64,000 nt of DNA from Nitrososphaerota archaeon (GTDB lineage: Archaea > Thermoproteota > EX4484-205 > JAAOZP01), in NCBI GenBank assembly GCA_011605725.1, contig JAAOZP010000017.1, forward strand, positions 192,001 to 256,000, given 5' to 3'. Positions 44,351 to 53,105 of this stretch are shown piece by piece. The notes under the pieces are model-generated. The model saw nothing but the letters and a program-made list of their open reading frames with translations, ran no database searches and was not told the DNA's origin. The translations under genes were made by a program, and so were the position numbers. Positions within the stretch are counted from its first letter, which is position 1, and each line of letters opens with the position of its first letter.

Positions 44351-45292
44351 TTGCTGAGCGAGGATATCGTTAAGGCTGTTGAAAAAGTTAAGCCAAGCAT
44401 TGTTAACGTGAGCACTGTTAAAATGGTTTACGAGTTTTTCTTCTACGCTTTCCCTGTTCACGGCGTTGGCTCAGGCATAGTTGTCGACGAGGACGGGCTT
44501 TTCCTCACGAACCATCATGTGATAAGGGGCTCAGAACGTATTCAAGCATCCTTCTACGACGGGCTTATGGCGGAGGGCAGGGTTGTGGGTGTTGACCCGA
44601 GTCTGGACATAGCCTTGGTCAAAGTTGACGACGTGAGCCTTAAGCCCGCTGAACTAGGAGATTCGGACACGCTTAGAGTTGGCGAGATAGTTATCGCGGT
44701 GGGGAACCCGCTGGGGCTCGCCGGCGAGCCGACTGTAACCATGGGTGTTGTAAGCGCTTTAGACAGGCAGATAGTTTCGAGAGAACTTTTCTTCCCGGAG
44801 CTTATTCAGACGGATGCTGCGATAAATCCTGGGAACAGCGGTGGCCCCCTGGTCAACCTTAAGGGAGAGGTTGTAGCAGTTAATACTGCAGTAATACCCT
44901 TCGCCCAAGGCATAAGCTTCGCAATACCGATAAGCTCCGTAAAGCCTCTGGTGGAGTCTTTCAAGAAGTATGGCAGGATTGTTAAGCCTTGGCTTGGAGT
45001 CAAGTCGATAGATGTTAACAGGCAGATTGCAACCTATTACTCGCTCGGTGTTGACTATGGGGCGCTCGTCGTAGAGGTTTCTCCGAAGAGCCCTGCTGAG
45101 AGAGCTGGCCTAAGACCCGGGGATGTTGTCACGATGATAGACGGCAAGCCTGTTAAAAGCTCAGCTTCCCTAGTGAAGGAGCTTAGGAGGAAATCTGTCG
45201 GCCAGAGGATAGAGCTCCTTATCTACAGGGGTTACAGCAGGTATGTTGCTTCACCGGTTCTCGAGGAAGCCAGGTTTCAAACTCTTGGCTAA
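44351..45292 (+). CDS. HtrA/DegP-like serine protease with one PDZ domain
   Basis: GSGIV, TNHHV, DIAL, IQTDAAINPGNSGGPL, SPAERAGLRPGDV; no signal peptide or TM helix. Confidence 0.93.
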   Translation: MLSEDIVKAVEKVKPSIVNVSTVKMVYEFFFYAFPVHGVGSGIVVDEDGLFLTNHHVIRGSERIQASFYDGLMAEGRVVGVDPSLDIALVKVDDVSLKPAELGDSDTLRVGEIVIAVGNPLGLAGEPTVTMGVVSALDRQIVSRELFFPELIQTDAAINPGNSGGPLVNLKGEVVAVNTAVIPFAQGISFAIPISSVKPLVESFKKYGRIVKPWLGVKSIDVNRQIATYYSLGVDYGALVVEVSPKSPAERAGLRPGDVVTMIDGKPVKSSASLVKELRRKSVGQRIELLIYRGYSRYVASPVLEEARFQTLG

Positions 45293-45307: not shown

Positions 45308-45796
45308 CTACCTGGAGGCAAGCTCCTGCACGAGGATCTGAACAGCCTTCTTGCTAAGCTCCCTAGCAGCCTGGTCGAGAGTAACGTATTTTAAAGCATC
45401 CTTCGGACAGTATTCGACGCACATCGGGTAACCATGTTTCTCACAGTAATCGCAGACTACGACCTTTCTCTTGTCGAGGTGCATCCTTACAACGCCGAAG
45501 GGGCATGTTTCAACACACCAGCCACACCCGTTACACTTGTTCTCATCCACAACTATGACTCCGTTAGGCTTCTGGGTTAAAGCGTCTCTCGGACATGCTT
45601 TAACACACAGAGGATCCTCGCATTTCCTGCAAGTTACAGCAAGATTCAGGAAGGGCTCTATTCTGACAACCCTTATCCTGGACTTCTTAATGTTGAGGAC
45701 GCCCTCGCTTGCAAAAGAGCACACGTATTCACATATCCTGCACCCGTTGCACCTGTCAGGGTCGCAAACAATTATCTTCCTAAGCCTCGACTCCAA
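45308..45796 (-). CDS. 4Fe-4S dicluster electron-transfer subunit (AOR small subunit)
   Basis: CNGCRICEYVC, CRKCEDPLCVKACP, CNGCGWCVETCP, CDYC...CVEYCP; overlaps the AOR stop. Confidence 0.92.
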   Translation of the reverse strand: MESRLRKIIVCDPDRCNGCRICEYVCSFASEGVLNIKKSRIRVVRIEPFLNLAVTCRKCEDPLCVKACPRDALTQKPNGVIVVDENKCNGCGWCVETCPFGVVRMHLDKRKVVVCDYCEKHGYPMCVEYCPKDALKYVTLDQAARELSKKAVQILVQELASR

Positions 45797-47630
45797 CCTC
45801 TTCCGCCTCCCTGGATAAGCCGAGCTCTAAAAGCTTGCGTTTCAACGGTATTCCATCCCTGCTCCAGCCCCTGCACTCGTAGTAACTGTCTAAAGCCTCC
45901 TCATACTCCTCCCTTTTTATAACCGCCCCCTTGACAACGTCGTCTGGCAACGGGTCTTCAAAAGCCCTTGGAGGAGGATAGTCATCCTTCCTAGTTACGC
46001 CGCACTTAACGTTGAAGCATCTCGCAACGTTATGTATTCTCTCACCCGCCCTCACTATCTGCTCGCCAGTCATGCTTAAGCCTGTTACAAGCGTGTAGAG
46101 CTTCGCAAGCTCATCCATGGATTGGAATATTCCTCTGGTGAACTTGCATATTATCAGGGAGTCTATCACAGCATACTGGTTTTCACCATCGTAAACTATC
46201 TTCCCCCTGCTCTTATCAAGCCTAAGCCTGTCAACCTTGCCTTTAACATCAACCTGGTATGAGCCCGACCTAAGATAGTCCGCACCCCTGTTGGAGACGG
46301 CGAAGCCCAGGGTTGAGGTTTGGAGAGACCTTAACTCGTACGCTGCCCACTCCAAACCCTTACAATGAACAGCGAACCTTTCAGAACCCTTCCCGACTAT
46401 TTGAGAAGCCCTCCTAACCCCCTCGCTGAGAAGTTTTCCAAGCCTACCCTCCTTGAGACACATTCTTCTTAGAGCCTCAAGCAGAGCCTCGTTACTGCCG
46501 AACCTGAGCTCAACACCGTCAGTATCCTCCTTCGTCAGAATACCCTTCTCGAAGCACTCCATAGCCCATCCCACTACGTTGCCCGCGGAAATCGTGTCGA
46601 CACCAAGCGTGTCGCAAATCTCAACAGCCTTGGTTATAGCGTCTAGGCTACGGATGCCACAGTTAGGCCCAAGAAGCGCCAGGCTCTCGTAGTCTACGCT
46701 TGAAACCGTGCCAGCGTAATCCTCCCTAGCCTGGTTAACATGGTCGCAAGCTATGGGGCATCCTGCGCACGCAATAATCTTCTTAACATGCGTCTTAAGC
46801 ATCATCTCGCCGGAGACTTCCTCAGCATACTCGAACGTACCCTTCTGGAAATTGTACGATGGTAGGCATCCCAGCTTGTTATGCACAAGAATGTTTGCAG
46901 GCGTCCCATACACCCTGTACTTCTCCGTCGCAGGCCCCTGGCAGCGCTCGTTCAACTCAGCTATGAACCTTACAAGACCCTGCGGGTCCGCGACCTCAAC
47001 ATCCCTAGTTCCTCTTACTGCGACAGCCTTAAGGTTTTTAGAGCCCATTACCGCGCCTAGGCCGCATCTACCTACCTGCCTGTTCCTCTCGTTCGTAATG
47101 TTCGCAAGCCTAACCATCCTTTCTCCAGCCGGACCTATTGAAGCTACTGTGAAAGACTCGTCTCCAAGCTCCTCCTTAATCATCTCTTCAGTCTCCCAGG
47201 TTGTCCTACCCCAGATGCTTGAAGCGTTTCTAAGCTCAACATTGTCATCGTCAATCATAAGGTAGACTGGTTTCTCAGACCTGCCTGTGAATACAACACC
47301 ATCCCAGCCTGCACTCTTAAACTCTGACGCGAAAAGGCCGGAGGAGATTCCGAAGCCGAAGATGCCTGTTAAAGGTGATTTCGCGAAAACAGCATACTTG
47401 TTGCCGGCTGTCGAGATGGTTCCTGCCAGCGGACCTGTCCACCAGATTAAAACGTTCTCCGGCGATAAAGGATCAACCTGCGCAGGGTTTGGAAGCATGT
47501 CATACAGGGTTCTAGCTCCAAACCCGTAGCCGCCTATGTAGTTTAGAGCCATTTGCTCCTCGATCTTCCCCACAGACGTCTTGCCGCGTGTCAAGTCAAC
47601 CATCAAGTATTTCCCAGCGTAGCCCTTCAA
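45780..47630 (-). CDS. Tungsten aldehyde:ferredoxin oxidoreductase (AOR/WOR family) large subunit
   Basis: KSPLTG, SIGPAGE, GRCGLGAVMGSKNLKA, CAGCPIAC, CDTLGVDTIS, DSLIICKF, YYECRGW. Confidence 0.95.
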   Translation of the reverse strand: MKGYAGKYLMVDLTRGKTSVGKIEEQMALNYIGGYGFGARTLYDMLPNPAQVDPLSPENVLIWWTGPLAGTISTAGNKYAVFAKSPLTGIFGFGISSGLFASEFKSAGWDGVVFTGRSEKPVYLMIDDDNVELRNASSIWGRTTWETEEMIKEELGDESFTVASIGPAGERMVRLANITNERNRQVGRCGLGAVMGSKNLKAVAVRGTRDVEVADPQGLVRFIAELNERCQGPATEKYRVYGTPANILVHNKLGCLPSYNFQKGTFEYAEEVSGEMMLKTHVKKIIACAGCPIACDHVNQAREDYAGTVSSVDYESLALLGPNCGIRSLDAITKAVEICDTLGVDTISAGNVVGWAMECFEKGILTKEDTDGVELRFGSNEALLEALRRMCLKEGRLGKLLSEGVRRASQIVGKGSERFAVHCKGLEWAAYELRSLQTSTLGFAVSNRGADYLRSGSYQVDVKGKVDRLRLDKSRGKIVYDGENQYAVIDSLIICKFTRGIFQSMDELAKLYTLVTGLSMTGEQIVRAGERIHNVARCFNVKCGVTRKDDYPPPRAFEDPLPDDVVKGAVIKREEYEEALDSYYECRGWSRDGIPLKRKLLELGLSREAEEVGVEA

Positions 47631-47632
47631 CC

Positions 47633-47926
47633 CTATCCTCCTCCAGCTACCGATGGGGCTAGAACAATCCTGTCGCCAGGGTTAACACGGTGCTCGCTGA
47701 CCCTGTTAAGGTCCACAACCCTCCCGTTAACTATTATCAGGGATGATTCCTCCATAGGCTTGCCGTCAGCCCCTATGAACTCTGAGCGTAAATCAGTGTT
47801 CGCGACCCTGCTGAGCTCCTCAAGGATCTCCAGCAGGCTGGCGCCGGGTTTCACACTGATCCTCATACTCCTCCTATTGAAGATTTCACGGAACCTTCCC
47901 ACCAGCTCCAGCTCCACCTCGTTCAC
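47633..47926 (-). CDS. MoaD/SAMP ubiquitin-like sulfur carrier
   Basis: IIVNGR...GDRIVLAPSVAGGG with C-terminal GG. Confidence 0.9.
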   Translation of the reverse strand: MNEVELELVGRFREIFNRRSMRISVKPGASLLEILEELSRVANTDLRSEFIGADGKPMEESSLIIVNGRVVDLNRVSEHRVNPGDRIVLAPSVAGGG

Positions 47927-48036
47927 GGCAGGTTAGAATGCCTTCAAGCATAATATAAGATTTTTCTAAGGTTTCCACACGCCCCCTAGGCATGGTAAAA
48001 GTTTTTCTACTGCTTTACTAGGTTTCCCCAGGTTAA

Positions 48037-48858
48037 TTGGCGACGAGGCTGGTTGAGAACGCTACGCTGCTGACTGTTGAGAAGCGTTTCTACACTGATT
48101 ATGTTCAACTAGTCCTCGACAGGAGCAGGTGTGTTTTCTGCGACGTCTGCATAAAGGTGTGCCCCAAGAGTGCGATTAGGCTTGCGAGGAAGGAAGACGG
48201 TTCGCTAACCCTTAAAATAGGGGAGGAGTGTAGCCTATGCGGCGCGTGCGAACCGTTCTGTCCGACTGGAGCGATAACAATAATGGTTAACGGTAAGCGT
48301 GTTAACCCTCTGGTCTCCTCAGGAGGATTCCCACTTCCTCTGCCTAAGATAAGGGTGGACCAGGCGAGATGCAGGATCGACTGTTTCGAGTGCTTCAAAG
48401 CCTGTCCCACCGGGGCTTTAAAAATAGACTCTGCACACAACGTTAAGGTTGACGAGGAAAAGTGTTTAAGATGCCCATGGTGTGAAGACGTTTGCCCCGA
48501 GAAAGCGATAAAAGTAAACCCATTGTTTGAGGGAACAGTCTTCATAGATGAGTCTAAATGCGACGAGAAGTGTGACGCCTGTGTTGAAACCTGTCCGACT
48601 AAAGCCATCGCTAAAACAGGTGGAAGAATAAGCATCAACCCTAGGTATTGCATACTATGCAACGCCTGTATCCATCTGGATGTCTGCAGGAACCATGCGA
48701 TAACCGTAGTCAGGCGGAGAGTCCTGCACGGGAAGGGTTTCTCAGCAGTCTGGGTTAACGCTGTCGAGAATCTCCTGAGTGGAAAAACCTTGGCGAGAGA
48801 GCTGGATTCTGAAGGCTACCGGAGGATAAGGAGGCTTATTGAGGAGGCGAGGCTCTGA
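48037..48858 (+). CDS. Polyferredoxin (about six [4Fe-4S] motifs, FwdF/MvhB-like)
   Basis: Six CxxCxxCxxxC(P)-type motifs; translationally coupled (TGATG) to hdrA. Confidence 0.9.
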   Translation: MATRLVENATLLTVEKRFYTDYVQLVLDRSRCVFCDVCIKVCPKSAIRLARKEDGSLTLKIGEECSLCGACEPFCPTGAITIMVNGKRVNPLVSSGGFPLPLPKIRVDQARCRIDCFECFKACPTGALKIDSAHNVKVDEEKCLRCPWCEDVCPEKAIKVNPLFEGTVFIDESKCDEKCDACVETCPTKAIAKTGGRISINPRYCILCNACIHLDVCRNHAITVVRRRVLHGKGFSAVWVNAVENLLSGKTLARELDSEGYRRIRRLIEEARL

Positions 48859-51293
48859 TGAGCGGGGAGCCGAGAATAGGAGTATTCGTGTGCCACTGCG
48901 GGAAGAACATAGCTGGCACTGTAGACGTCGCGAAGGTTGCCGAGTACGCTAAGACTCTTCCAAACGTCGTTTACTCCACCCATAATCTTTACACGTGTTC
49001 AGAAGCTGGACAAGCTGAGGTAAAGAGGATAATTAAGGAATACGGGCTTAACAGGGTTGTCGTAGCAGCCTGCAGCCCGAAGATGCATGAGCCGACTTTC
49101 AGAGCATGCGTCTCAGAAGCAGGTTTAAACCCTTACCTATTCGAAATGGCTAACATAAGGGAGCATTGCTCCTGGGTTCACATGAGCGACCCTGAGGGCG
49201 CCACTAGGAAGGCTATCGACCTTGTCAAAATGGCTGTTGCTAAAGCACGGTTGCTTGAGCCTCTTGAGCCGATAATCGTCCCAGTTGAGAAAACGCTGCT
49301 CGTCATAGGCGGGGGAATAGCTGGAATGAGAACAGCACTAGACGTAGCGGACTCAGGGTACAACGTGATACTCGTCGAGAAGTCTCCGAGACTGGGAGGC
49401 AAGACAGCGATGCTGGGGAAAACTTTTCCAAAAGTGGATTGCACATCCTGCTTGGTAAACGAAATGATAAGCAGAGTATTGACACATCCGAGGATAAGGG
49501 TTTTAACGCTTTCTGAAGTCGCCAGCGTAGACGGCTACGTTGGAAACTTCATCGTCACGGTGAAAAGATCCCCGTCGAAAGTCTCTGTAGAGTGCACAGG
49601 ATGCGGGAAATGTGTTGAAGCATGCCCCGTAGAGGTTGAGGAAGAGTTTACACGCGGCCTCTCAAAAAGAAAAGCAATATATCTTGTTGAGAAAACCTGG
49701 AGGAATGCTGGTTGCGAATACGGGTATGAGAAGGTAGTCCACATACCGGGACTAGTGGGAAGCCCGATGACAGCCCTGGTTGACGTGAAAAACTGCAGTA
49801 AATGCGGGAAATGTGTTGAAACATGCCCAGTCAAAGCAATAGACCTTGAGGCACCAGGATTACAGGAAACATTCAAAGTCGGCGCGATAGTAATAGCGAC
49901 AGGATTCGACCTTTTCAACCCTGGGAGAAAACCGGAGTATGGCTACGGAAGACTGAGAAATGTCTTGTCAAGCATGGAGTTCGAGAAAATGCTAACACCA
50001 GACGGGCCGACGAAAGGAGAAGCAGTAAGGCCCTCAGACGGGAAGCCGGTTGGGAAAATAGCGTTTATACAGTGCGTGGGCTGCAGGGATGAACAGACAA
50101 ACATCTACTGCTCAAGAATATGCTGCATGATAACCCTTAAGCAAGCGCTCCTCCTGAAGAGGAAAAACCCTGATGCTGAAGTAACCGTGTACTATATTGA
50201 TGTTAGAGCAGGCGGGAAAGAGTATGAAAGAATATTCAGAATGGCGAGGGAGAAAGGAGTGAGGTTCATCAGGGGCAGGCCCAGCAGAGTCGAGGAGGAA
50301 AACGGGATGCTGAAGATACGTGCAGAGGACACTCTGAGCGGAGAGAGAATAGAGGAGCAGTATGACCTCGTAGTCCTAGCGATAGGAATGCAGCCCTCGG
50401 AAGGCACGGATAGGCTTGGAGAAATACTTAGAGTGCCAAGGGACCAGTATGGCTTTTTCATGGAGGCACATATCAAGCTTAAACCGGTTGAAACAGTCGT
50501 AAACGGCATATTTCTAGCGGGATCGTGCGCAGGACCGACAGACATACCCATGACGGTAGCCAGGGGGCATGCGGCAGCTTCGAAAACACTAATGCTTTTC
50601 TCAAAAGACTTCATGGAGCTTGAGCCGATAACAAGCTACGTGGACCCGTTGAAATGCAAAGGATGCCTAGCGTGCACAAAAATGTGCCCGTTTCAAGCGT
50701 TGAAACCGGTGGAAACCGAAGGTAGGAGAACAATACAGGTCACTCAGTCGATGTGCGCTGGATGCGGAACATGCACAGCAGGCTGCCCCTTCGGAGCCTT
50801 AAACCAATACCACTTTACAGATGAGCAGATATTTGCACAAATCGATGCAGCCCTTGAGGAAAACCCGAGGGAAAAAATCATAAGTTTCAATTGTAATTGG
50901 TGTTCATACGCTGGCGCGGATATGGCTGGAGTCTCAAGATTCGAATACCCGTCGAGCGTGAGGATAATCAGAGTGATGTGCTCGGGTAGAGTCAGCGAGA
51001 AAATGATTCTGAGGGCGTTCGAGAAGGGGGCGGGAATGGTTCTAGTAGCACCGTGTCACCCTGCTGACTGTCACTACATAAGCGGCAACGAGTGGGCCCG
51101 TAGAAGGGTTGAGTCGCTTAAGAAGAGGCTTGGCAAGATGGGTATTAATCCTGAGAGGCTTTGGTTCGTCTATGTTTCCGCCGCAGAGGGCAATGTTTAC
51201 CAGAACACGATTATTAAAATGAATGAATATTTGCAGAAGCTTAAGAACGGCGAGGTAAGCTGGGGCGTTGAAGAGGCTAAGGCAGTAGCCTAG
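48858..51293 (+). CDS. hdrA: Heterodisulfide reductase subunit A-like flavoprotein fused to MvhD
   Basis: VCHCGKNI, AACSP, REHCSWVH, GGGIAG, KTFP--DC--C, YCSRICC; C-terminal MvhD motifs CNWCSYAGAD, RVMCSGRV, CHPADCHY. Confidence 0.93.
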   Translation: MSGEPRIGVFVCHCGKNIAGTVDVAKVAEYAKTLPNVVYSTHNLYTCSEAGQAEVKRIIKEYGLNRVVVAACSPKMHEPTFRACVSEAGLNPYLFEMANIREHCSWVHMSDPEGATRKAIDLVKMAVAKARLLEPLEPIIVPVEKTLLVIGGGIAGMRTALDVADSGYNVILVEKSPRLGGKTAMLGKTFPKVDCTSCLVNEMISRVLTHPRIRVLTLSEVASVDGYVGNFIVTVKRSPSKVSVECTGCGKCVEACPVEVEEEFTRGLSKRKAIYLVEKTWRNAGCEYGYEKVVHIPGLVGSPMTALVDVKNCSKCGKCVETCPVKAIDLEAPGLQETFKVGAIVIATGFDLFNPGRKPEYGYGRLRNVLSSMEFEKMLTPDGPTKGEAVRPSDGKPVGKIAFIQCVGCRDEQTNIYCSRICCMITLKQALLLKRKNPDAEVTVYYIDVRAGGKEYERIFRMAREKGVRFIRGRPSRVEEENGMLKIRAEDTLSGERIEEQYDLVVLAIGMQPSEGTDRLGEILRVPRDQYGFFMEAHIKLKPVETVVNGIFLAGSCAGPTDIPMTVARGHAAASKTLMLFSKDFMELEPITSYVDPLKCKGCLACTKMCPFQALKPVETEGRRTIQVTQSMCAGCGTCTAGCPFGALNQYHFTDEQIFAQIDAALEENPREKIISFNCNWCSYAGADMAGVSRFEYPSSVRIIRVMCSGRVSEKMILRAFEKGAGMVLVAPCHPADCHYISGNEWARRRVESLKKRLGKMGINPERLWFVYVSAAEGNVYQNTIIKMNEYLQKLKNGEVSWGVEEAKAVA

Positions 51294-51904: not shown

Positions 51905-52666
51905 ATGTACGACGAATTATCGCTCAGAATAATGCTGTTTTTAAGGAGGAGGAAAACAGCGAGGTTCAAGGATCTTAAGACGGTCGTCAGCAACCCTAGG
52001 ACGCTCACGATAAAGCTGAAAAAGCTTAAGCATCTGGGGCTTGTAAAGTCTGAAAATGGGACGTATGAGCTGACTTCTAAAGGCCTTGAGGCAAGCAGGG
52101 TTCTTGAAGATTTACATAGGATTCTTTCCTCTTCTGAACCAGTGATTAGGAACGTGGAGAGAATACCTCACCACTACTATGCTCCTGTGATAAGAAGGTA
52201 TTGTGAACTGTTGATGGGCCTGTTAGGGGAAAGGCTTCTTAGCATAATGCTTTTCGGCTCTGTCGCCAGAGGAGACTGGAAAAGGGAGAGTGATATAGAT
52301 ATTCTTATAGTGGCTGAGGGCTGGGAGGATAAGCCTGCTTGGGTTAGGATTGAAGAGCTTAGAAGGGCTAAGGAAGCCCTGGAGGAAAGCCTGGAGTATT
52401 CAGAGGCTTTAGGAGCCGGCTACTTTCCGATTATTCAAAACTACGCGCTTAGCGTTGAGGAGGCTAAAGGGTTTAACAGAATATTCTTAGACGCGGTGGT
52501 CGACGGCATAATTCTTTACGATAAGAACGGGTTTCTAACAGGAGTGCTTCAATCTTTAAGGAAAAGACTTGAAAAAATGGGTTCAGTAAGGGTTACGCTT
52601 CCAGATAAAAAGTTCTACTGGGTTCTGAAGGATGTGAAGGCGGGGGAGGTAATAACGCTTGGATAG
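51905..52666 (+). CDS. Winged-HTH fused to minimal nucleotidyltransferase (MNT), putative antitoxin
   Basis: N-terminal RFKDL...PRTLTIKLKKL..LGLV..YELTSKG; MNT motif FGSVARGDWKRESDIDIL. Confidence 0.88.
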   Translation: MYDELSLRIMLFLRRRKTARFKDLKTVVSNPRTLTIKLKKLKHLGLVKSENGTYELTSKGLEASRVLEDLHRILSSSEPVIRNVERIPHHYYAPVIRRYCELLMGLLGERLLSIMLFGSVARGDWKRESDIDILIVAEGWEDKPAWVRIEELRRAKEALEESLEYSEALGAGYFPIIQNYALSVEEAKGFNRIFLDAVVDGIILYDKNGFLTGVLQSLRKRLEKMGSVRVTLPDKKFYWVLKDVKAGEVITLG

Positions 52667-53105
52667 CACTACAAACATAGATCTTGCTGCGTCAGCCATA
52701 AGAAGGAGCGCGCGATGGTTGAGAAGCGCCTTAAGGGCTCTGGAGGACGAGAGGTGGGATGACGTCGTCTACTCTTCACAGATGGCTGTTGAACAAGCGT
52801 CTAAAGCAGTGTTGATAGCGCTTGGAATAGAGTATCCTAGGGAGCATGATGTTAGCGCTGTCTTCAAGCGGATCTCAAGAATAGAGAATGTTCCAGAATG
52901 GTTCTCATCCATTGTTCCTGAGCTTGCTGACAATATTTCTGAACTGGCTGAGTTAAGAGGGTTAGCCGGCTACGGTTATGAGAAGGGTTTAGACGCTGAT
53001 TATTTTAAAGGCTATGCGCCAAAGGCGTATGAAATGGCTGTGAAACATTATGAGGCTTGTGCCAAATTTCTCTCTGAGGTTTACGGTATAGATGTGAAAA
53101 AGTGA
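52659..53105 (+). CDS. HEPN-domain protein, putative toxin
   Basis: SQMAVEQASKAVL, PREHDV, LRGLAGYG; overlaps the MNT gene. Confidence 0.88.
   Translation: MDSTTNIDLAASAIRRSARWLRSALRALEDERWDDVVYSSQMAVEQASKAVLIALGIEYPREHDVSAVFKRISRIENVPEWFSSIVPELADNISELAELRGLAGYGYEKGLDADYFKGYAPKAYEMAVKHYEACAKFLSEVYGIDVKK

Follow-up and report, generated by a model that had tools for sequence, protein, structure and literature searches.

The window analyzed here is a stretch of 64,000 nucleotides (G000:C7:192001-256000) from a 2.23-Mb metagenome-assembled genome (MAG) that is 93% complete, and it is to this 93%-complete genome that all genome-wide absences reported below refer. The host is a Brockarchaeota-like organism whose nearest public relatives come from hot springs and carry the labels Candidatus Brockarchaeota or Thermoproteota. 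In the window, two gene sets diverge from a 110-bp gap, one encoding a tungsten-type aldehyde ferredoxin oxidoreductase (AOR) with its iron-sulfur (FeS) subunit and a MoaD-like protein, and the other a polyferredoxin and a fusion of the heterodisulfide reductase subunit HdrA with MvhD (HdrA::MvhD). The features of the locus are as follows.

45308 to 45796, minus strand: WorS/AorA-type small subunit with four [4Fe-4S] motifs, 162 amino acids (Fer4 families, Cys motifs, PDB matches)
45780 to 47630, minus strand: AOR-family pterin (tungsten-type) catalytic subunit, WorL, 616 amino acids, with Tyr replacing His448 (AFOR_N, AFOR_C)
47633 to 47926, minus strand: MoaD/ThiS-like (WorX-like) protein, 97 amino acids, with a C-terminal GGG (PF02597, TIGR01687/SAMP1)
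47927 to 48036, no strand: divergent promoter region, 110 bp, with two conserved A/T-rich boxes (alignment of 14 relatives)
48037 to 48858, plus strand: FwdF/FmdF-like polyferredoxin with six [4Fe-4S] motifs and a C-terminal tail of ~60 amino acids, 273 amino acids (NF042909)
48858 to 51293, plus strand: HdrA::MvhD fusion, HdrA2-type, 811 amino acids (NF040770, PF02662)

The genes for the FeS subunit and the AOR overlap by 17 bp, and the start of hdrA::mvhD uses the final base of the polyferredoxin gene. The gap between the two sets (47927-48036) contains two boxes, ATATAAGAYTTTTC and AAAGTTTTTCTAC, that are kept in the alignment of 14 relatives, each 25 to 40 bp from its own start codon. The two boxes have AAG(N)TTTTTCTA as a common core, oriented the same way, and probably serve as back-to-back promoters of leaderless or short-leader transcripts. 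No shared palindromic operator was seen in the 110-bp gap, which holds only these two promoter-like boxes.

The original prediction for this locus, made from the letters of the window, had proposed a bifurcating complex of a tungsten oxidoreductase with HdrA-MvhD that works without HdrBC or a hydrogenase. Its description of the window was accurate in each of the details examined. The five genes diverge across the 110-bp gap as listed above; neither hdrB nor hdrC turned up in the window when the genome's own HdrB and HdrC were used as tblastn queries; mvhA/G are absent from the window, the [NiFe] hydrogenases sitting 10 to 18 kb ahead of its start; and there is no fdh in the window, the Fdh-type family PF00384 not being found anywhere in the genome. 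The Glu of SMEFE and the Lys of CCMITLK, which it had likened to the residues next to the bifurcating flavin, correspond in the alignment to E356 and K409 of the 5ODC HdrA.

A conserved-neighborhood search for AOR with HdrA-MvhD, which the original prediction had named as its check, found the linkage in relatives and recurring over several phyla. The forward set comprised 80 genome loci encoding HdrA::MvhD relatives, and the counts of the reverse query, in which the AOR was searched against metagenome contigs, cover loci that extend at least 4 kb to either side. All compared genomes are MAGs or metagenome contigs, and counts over related genomes overstate their independence. FeS-AOR-MoaD diverged from polyferredoxin-HdrA::MvhD in 17/17 Brockarchaeota-like loci with an upstream flank (60 to 88% HdrA identity), and the reverse query found HdrA::MvhD in 6/6 loci at an AOR identity of ≥85% and in 5/6 loci at 60 to 85%. 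In the class (26 genomes), every assembly that contains both the AOR ortholog and HdrA::MvhD has them on a single contig at a distance of ~1.2 kb. Genus g5 (3 genomes) and one further genome (G019) jointly lacked the AOR ortholog, HdrA::MvhD, and HdrB; since related genomes are not independent samples, we take this joint absence to reflect no more than a couple of independent losses.

The pairing is also found beyond the Brockarchaeota-like loci, partly with the genes arranged differently. A Hadarchaeota locus (L060) has the identical divergent layout followed by hdrC-hdrB, and an Actinomycetota locus (L088) is codirectional, with the order polyferredoxin-HdrA::MvhD-HdrA'-MoaD-AOR-FeS. Further orders, seen in relatives of lower identity, are polyferredoxin-HdrA::MvhD-MoaD-AOR-FeS (L114), AOR..FeS-polyferredoxin-HdrA::MvhD-HdrC-HdrB (L127), AOR-FeS-HdrA::MvhD, its last two genes overlapping by 4 bp (L143), AOR-FeS-GltD-like flavoprotein-HdrA::MvhD-polyferredoxin (L167), and AOR-FeS-HdrA::MvhD-HdrD-like (L181). 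That the pairing comes back in several gene orders unrelated to one another is, short of experiments, the strongest evidence for a functional link between the two modules.

Some of these loci have features of their own. The HdrA::MvhD gene of the Actinomycetota locus (L088:7965-10400, plus strand) contains one in-frame TGA that aligns with a Cys of the MvhD CxxC motif; it probably encodes selenocysteine, as in VhuD and BamF, and HdrA::MvhD would then be intact. At L167 (L167:18-5399), the AOR is preceded by an RnfD-like membrane protein that carries a fused ferredoxin domain, and the GltD-like flavoprotein between the FeS gene and hdrA::mvhD consists of Fer4 and Pyr_redox_2 domains. The set looks like a variant of the AOR-HdrA core with links to the membrane and to NAD(P)H. 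At five loci with 69 to 72% AOR identity (L096:3163-5096, L115, L116, L122, and L141), AsrAB/FlxBA-like genes resembling those for sulfhydrogenase beta and gamma subunits directly follow the FeS gene on the AOR strand, and these would be a second NAD(P)H-type module on the AOR operon itself.

The window AOR belongs to a 15-sequence clade that was recovered as one split by both FastTree and IQ-TREE (100% SH-aLRT) and that contains the Brockarchaeota-like sequences and those of L088, L060, L126/L127, and L124. Hdr linkage was found for 11 of the 12 clade members with enough flanking sequence. The AOR-linked members of the HdrA::MvhD tree fall into three or more well-separated lineages, which are interleaved with unlinked Desulfobacterota, Spirochaetota, Archaeoglobaceae, and Bathyarchaeia. 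A single origin of the linkage by coinheritance was rejected because the AOR and HdrA::MvhD trees are incongruent: L060 and L127 have AORs of the Tyr-bearing clade described below, but their HdrA::MvhD proteins come from the opposite half of the tree. Since these placements disagree, the AOR-HdrA association is modular and has been re-formed or exchanged.

The catalytic subunit matched PF02730 (AFOR_N) with 239 bits and PF01314 (AFOR_C) with 410 bits. By sequence, it came closest to Pyrococcus furiosus AOR (1AOR; 402 bits), WorL of AmWOR1 (9mqx_D; 397 bits), and AorB of A. aromaticum (360 bits). A BamB-type ring reductase was rejected, since the match to BamB (4z3w_A) was partial, with 234 bits over residues 6 to 421 only, versus a full-length match of 402 bits to 1AOR, and since the FeS subunit has four clusters. 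Equivalents of the cluster ligands C288/C291/C295/C494 are kept, as in members of the AOR/WOR (tungsten oxidoreductase) family, and a tungsten rather than molybdenum bis-pyranopterin cofactor is inferred from family membership.

Equivalents of T243, E313, Y427, and D489 are likewise kept, and the alignment places Gly at the position of Tyr452. At the position of His448, the window AOR has Tyr (SNRGADYLR versus NNRGGCHIK; Tyr codon at ~46275-46277). Thr243, Glu313, Tyr427, and His448 have been called conserved over aldehyde-oxidizing AORs, with Glu313 and His448 forming a proposed proton relay (PMC12096430, PMC13328260). The residue set of AOR sensu stricto is thus incomplete here, with Thr, Glu, and Tyr present and Tyr at the His448 position. 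This second-shell replacement marks the clade of the window AOR: Tyr was found in 15/15 clade members, and His in every other AOR examined, including the three paralogs in this genome. Judged from these alignments, the His448-to-Tyr change is a genuine departure from the norm of the AOR family.

The FeS subunit matched Fer4 families, has four Cys cluster motifs, and was closest among PDB entries to WorS of AmWOR1 (9mqx_E; 111 bits), the WOR5 small subunit, and AorA. A four-cluster WorS gene overlapping a WorL gene is the arrangement of Class II WORs (WorLS), and the window enzyme would fall in Class II by the rules of the 2026 classification of WORs. The arrangement of the bifurcating Class IV (WorLSABC) was not found, as there are no NuoE/F/G-like genes beside the AOR; the only HoxEFU set in the genome belongs to a hydrogenase operon ~57 kb away. 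The MoaD/ThiS-like protein resembles WorX, which is described in PMC13328260, and is probably a maturation factor for the pterin cofactor rather than a subunit. L060, L088, and every Brockarchaeota-like locus have likewise kept its gene upstream of the AOR.

On the other side of the gap, the best NCBIfam match of the polyferredoxin was FwdF (NF042909; 120 bits), and its best PDB matches were FmdF (7bkb_K), 9sfi_T, and FwdF (5t5i_F). HdrA::MvhD scored 997 bits against the HdrA2 model NF040770, which is under the curated cutoff of 1100, and 157 bits against FlpD/MvhD (PF02662). Its HdrA part matched 5odc_A over residues 4 to 665 with 716 bits, and 5odc_D (MvhD) matched residues 672 to 787, where the MvhD domain has five Cys. 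The HdrA part has what is expected of a full-length bifurcating HdrA, keeping equivalents of C194/C197, E356, and K409, the last of which contacts N5 of the bifurcating FAD (PMC6405883). Within HdrA lies an inserted ferredoxin domain, where we observed a 20- to 24-residue insertion with one conserved Cys (window ~49680-49775, residues ~275 to 305); in methanogen complexes, the ferredoxin domain inserted into HdrA is the polyferredoxin-binding domain (PMC13518236). We rejected the ~20-residue insertion as a marker of AOR linkage because it is found in the Brockarchaeota-like class only and is missing from other AOR-linked HdrA::MvhD proteins.

The proposal that the complex works without HdrBC found no support, since HdrBC are encoded on another contig of the genome (C4) and adjoin hdrA::mvhD in relatives. 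Contig C4 carries hdrC-hdrB-hdrA'-mvhD' together with genes for a 274-amino-acid Fer4 FeS protein, a HydB/AsrA-like protein with Fer4_22, and a HydG/AsrB-like protein with NAD_binding_1, FAD_binding_6, and DHODB_Fe-S domains. By its predicted products, this block matches the composition of FlxABCD-HdrABC (HdrC, HdrB, HdrA', and FlxDCBA). It holds the single HdrBC pair in the genome, along with a second HdrA, a second MvhD, and a Flx-type NAD(P)H module. The MvhD domains in the genome number two, the fused one and the one on C4. The only other CCG protein, on contig C3, was rejected as a second HdrB, as it sits in a GlcD/GlcF-type FAD-oxidase cluster.

In the more divergent of the Brockarchaeota-like loci, L096, L038, L075, and L040 (to the contig end), the genes hdrC-hdrB-hdrA'-mvhD'-X274-AsrA-like-AsrB-like directly follow hdrA::mvhD, and many junctions in this block are 4-bp overlaps. 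Because these seven genes match the C4 block in content and order, the window locus is a split operon. No relic of hdrB or hdrC was found by tblastn after hdrA::mvhD in the window. Over the 26 genomes of the class, HdrB was adjacent in some and on another contig in many; within the class, AOR-HdrA linkage thus outlasts HdrA-HdrBC linkage. The site that hdrC occupies in the unsplit loci L040 and L125 is taken in the window by a toxin-antitoxin-like nucleotidyltransferase/HEPN pair (51905-53105, plus strand), which only the closest relatives (L030, L106, L108, and L120) have as well; the operon may have been split by a rearrangement of which this pair is the mark.

The genome does encode [NiFe] hydrogenases; they are of types 3b and 3d-like with their own NAD(P) modules, and an MvhAG-type hydrogenase was not found in the genome. 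Two hydrogenase operons lie back to back at G000:C7:173658-182566. The first, HoxE-HoxF-HoxU-small-large, is 3d-like, with a 177-amino-acid HoxY-like small subunit and a large subunit that matched VhuA best (418 bits); the second encodes a group 3b sulfhydrogenase in the order beta-gamma-delta-alpha. With HoxEFU in one operon and beta/gamma in the other, each hydrogenase therefore has its own NAD(P) module. Groups 3d and 3b are those assigned to Brockarchaeota in the description of the phylum, which agrees with this genome and makes no mention of Hdr (PMC8065059).

Other customary partners were also not found. Neither mcrA, nor a PF00384 enzyme, nor an FrhB/FdhB-type F420 module was found in the genome, and the lack of a PF00384 enzyme means that there is no Fdh and no FwdB/FmdB. 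We therefore rejected an Mvh-type hydrogenase, an Fdh, or an F420 module as the true partner of MvhD, none being found in the genome. An HdrABC-MvhAGD assembly was not found either: HdrBC are only on C4, and neither an Mvh-type hydrogenase nor mcrA was found in the genome.

Taken together, these results make it somewhat probable that the AOR module and the polyferredoxin/HdrA::MvhD module are physically and electronically coupled, with FeS proteins wiring tungsten to the HdrA flavin. The coupling of the tungsten enzyme to HdrA-MvhD had been the core of the original prediction, and it gains from the conserved, recurrent pair and from the usual MvhD partners not being found; operation free of HdrBC is not supported. 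Gene content, cofactor motifs, the conserved and recurring linkage, the operon split, and the missing conventional partners are observations, whereas the physical association, the wiring, its direction, and the substrate are inferences. The two divergent operons would form one functional unit, consisting of a WorLS-type aldehyde:acid oxidoreductase and polyferredoxin-HdrA::MvhD, and the acid/aldehyde couple (about -580 mV) would become an arm of a complex that bifurcates or confurcates electrons at a flavin. HdrBC, encoded once in the genome, would supply another arm, and the Flx-type NAD(P)H module, which brings an HdrA' and an MvhD' of its own, the remaining one.

The wiring we favor is modeled on the solved Hdr-Fwd/Fmd supercomplexes. 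In methanogen complexes, HdrBC accepts the high-potential electron, and polyferredoxins (FmdF, or VhuB plus FwdF) on the ferredoxin domain inserted into HdrA feed low-potential electrons to the tungstopterin site (PMC13518236); in AmWOR1, WorS chains feed the bifurcating "plug" (PMC12318220). Given that the nearest solved relatives of the polyferredoxin are FmdF/FwdF and that the genome lacks Fwd/Fmd, its partner is most likely the adjacent pterin enzyme. NAD(P)H would enter through Flx-MvhD'-HdrA' as the mid-potential port, HdrBC would be the high-potential port, and the low-potential path would run from the HdrA flavin through the inserted ferredoxin domain, the polyferredoxin, WorS, and the WorL cluster to tungsten, reversing in aldehyde oxidation. 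Such a complex could couple NAD(P)H-driven acid reduction to disulfide reduction or, in the reverse direction, confurcate aldehyde and dithiol to NAD(P)H. Our more specific and tentative suggestion is that the locus represents one more, so far unreported, class of tungsten oxidoreductase, in which an AOR-clade WorLS with a remodeled proton relay (His448 to Tyr) is hard-wired via the polyferredoxin to the low-potential arm of HdrA, bypassing free ferredoxin, as a nonmethanogen counterpart of Hdr-Fwd.

Several points weigh against coupling of this kind. In this genome, the AOR set and the polyferredoxin-hdrA::mvhD set form two transcription units, each with a promoter box of its own, so a diffusible ferredoxin could join them. 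Most HdrA::MvhD homologues at 46 to 53% identity have no nearby AOR, and many AOR-FeS relatives at 44 to 50% identity have no nearby Hdr; with so many unlinked homologues of each, neither module strictly requires the other. Even within the AOR clade, L124 has no HdrA within 7 kb. The favored wiring assigns the fused MvhD domain no role, and HdrBC would need a disulfide substrate in a nonmethanogen. Lastly, an aldehyde at -580 mV can reduce ferredoxin without bifurcation.

The alternative that best withstands the data is that the two sets are metabolic neighbors only, a Class II ferredoxin-dependent WorLS and a Flx-Hdr-type NAD(P)H:ferredoxin:disulfide enzyme that both act on the ferredoxin pool, are colocated and coregulated for that reason, and form no complex. 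We consider this possible, if rather unlikely. It would account for the separate divergent promoters in this genome, for the HdrCBA plus FlxDCBA composition of the C4 block, and for the many homologues of either module that stand alone, and Class II WORs do use ferredoxin (PMC13328260). A tie of this kind has been proposed for Adh/AOR and FlxABCD-HdrABC in Desulfovibrio, where Flx-Hdr is linked to ethanol metabolism (Ramos 2015, cited in PMC5296606; PMC5861303). However, the interleaved, tight operons elsewhere, with a 4-bp overlap of the FeS gene and hdrA::mvhD or with AOR-FeS between Hdr genes, are unusual for partners that share only a soluble carrier. Moreover, the AOR-HdrA pair was never separated in the 26 class genomes wherever both were assembled, whereas HdrBC was, and sharing a pool leaves a FwdF-type polyferredoxin in a genome without Fwd/Fmd.

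The wiring of the original prediction, in which the tungsten enzyme docks on MvhD as the electron donor, HdrA bifurcates aldehyde electrons without HdrBC, and the low-potential electrons leave through the polyferredoxin, appears improbable. MvhD is indeed an adaptor for exchangeable input modules such as Vhu or FdhAB (PMC13518236), AmWOR1 does bifurcate aldehyde electrons (PMC12318220), and the AOR-HdrA link is more conserved in the class than the HdrA-HdrBC link. Nevertheless, HdrBC are encoded in this genome and adjacent in relatives, and without HdrBC or another high-potential acceptor the bifurcating flavin would have no target; the aldehyde potential is, besides, already below that of ferredoxin. 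Two loci, L143 and L142, hold the polyferredoxin, AOR, FeS subunit, and HdrA::MvhD with no HdrBC in the available sequence, as this model would have it, although both contigs are short. That HdrA::MvhD instead docks one of the [NiFe] hydrogenases encoded 57 to 65 kb off on the same contig, the AOR being unrelated, is highly improbable, for while MvhD classically binds MvhAG and one large subunit is best matched by VhuA (418 bits), both hydrogenases (HoxEFU-small-large and the sulfhydrogenase) have their own NAD(P) modules and no hydrogenase genes stand beside HdrA::MvhD in any Brockarchaeota-like locus.

The favored coupling of WorLS through the polyferredoxin to HdrA has a close parallel in the Hdr-Vhu/Fdh-Fwd(Fmd) supercomplexes of methanogens (7BKB, 9SFI, and 9SW6). 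These also combine HdrA and MvhD with a FwdF/FmdF-type polyferredoxin, which leads to a tungstopterin enzyme near -500 to -580 mV, and they have exchangeable inputs and HdrBC as the high-potential arm. Here, in contrast, the pterin enzyme belongs to the AOR family and comes with WorS rather than being of the bis-pyranopterin guanine dinucleotide Fwd/Fmd type, MvhD is fused to HdrA while a second HdrA' and MvhD' are encoded, and the input is probably NAD(P)H via the Flx-type module, not H2 or formate. No CoM-S-S-CoB chemistry is expected here because there is no mcrA.

The class II benzoyl-CoA reductase BamBCDEFGHI of Geobacter metallireducens shares with this system an AOR-family tungsten enzyme with an FeS subunit, HdrA-, HdrBC-, and MvhD-like subunits, and an NAD(P)H module. 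It differs in that its FeS subunit has three clusters rather than four and its NAD(P)H module is the NuoEFG-like BamGHI, whereas the catalytic subunit here is of the AOR clade, the NAD(P)H module is of the Flx/sulfhydrogenase type, and a polyferredoxin is present. WorABCSL of Acetomicrobium mobile (Class IV, 9MQX) has a WorL and a WorS that are close relatives of those in the window, and its WorS chain feeds a bifurcating flavoprotein. That flavoprotein is BfuABC (HydABC-type, FMN), unlike the HdrA FAD, MvhD, and HdrBC found here, where there is no adjacent WorABC.

Methanosarcina acetivorans HdrA2B2C2 likewise pairs a fused HdrA::MvhD with a polyferredoxin in an operon, and hdrB2C2-type genes may sit elsewhere (PMC5296606). 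The window protein differs in scoring 997 bits against the HdrA2 cutoff of 1100, and its genome in that no F420 module or mcrA was found. To our knowledge, AOR linkage has not been reported for Methanosarcina. The C4 block by itself resembles FlxABCD-HdrABC of Desulfovibrio, which has the HdrABC plus FlxDCBA composition and is tied physiologically to alcohol/aldehyde metabolism (Ramos et al. 2015). The relatives here differ from Desulfovibrio in that the block is joined to an additional HdrA::MvhD, to a polyferredoxin, and to an AOR operon.

Hydrogenase, formate dehydrogenase, Flx, MetFV, and the Bam ring reductase are known as modules that can be exchanged on HdrA-type bifurcating cores. Tungsten AORs are known to couple to ferredoxin, NAD, or a Bfu-type bifurcating plug. 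The AOR-HdrA::MvhD system is a new combination of these known module types. The five classes in a 2026 classification of >4,000 WORs, whose bifurcating Class IV comprises the Bam complex and WorLS with a BfuABC-type WorABC, do not include an AOR-clade WorLS that is linked to HdrA::MvhD, a polyferredoxin, and HdrBC/Flx (PMC13328260). No description of an AOR-HdrA::MvhD pairing was found in the literature searched, and the recurrence of the pairing over several phyla points to an energy-coupling enzyme type absent from that literature. What this locus adds is the Brockarchaeota case, the operon split behind its HdrBC-less look, the AOR-HdrA linkage that outlasts the linkage to HdrBC within a class, and the His448-to-Tyr signature of the clade.

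If this reading is true, a canonical-clade AOR on an Hdr-type core would handle the very low-potential acid/aldehyde couple without a ferredoxin pool, which would be relevant to alcohol/acid fermentations in uncultured archaea and to biocatalytic acid reduction. The Brockarchaeota would gain an Hdr/Flx-based energy-coupling system that is unmentioned in the original description of the phylum (PMC8065059), and the clade-wide His448-to-Tyr change is a concrete, testable handle on catalysis. Next to the locus, convergent to the FeS subunit gene, the window encodes an HtrA-like serine protease with a PDZ domain (44351-45292, plus strand), whose position is kept in the closest relatives.

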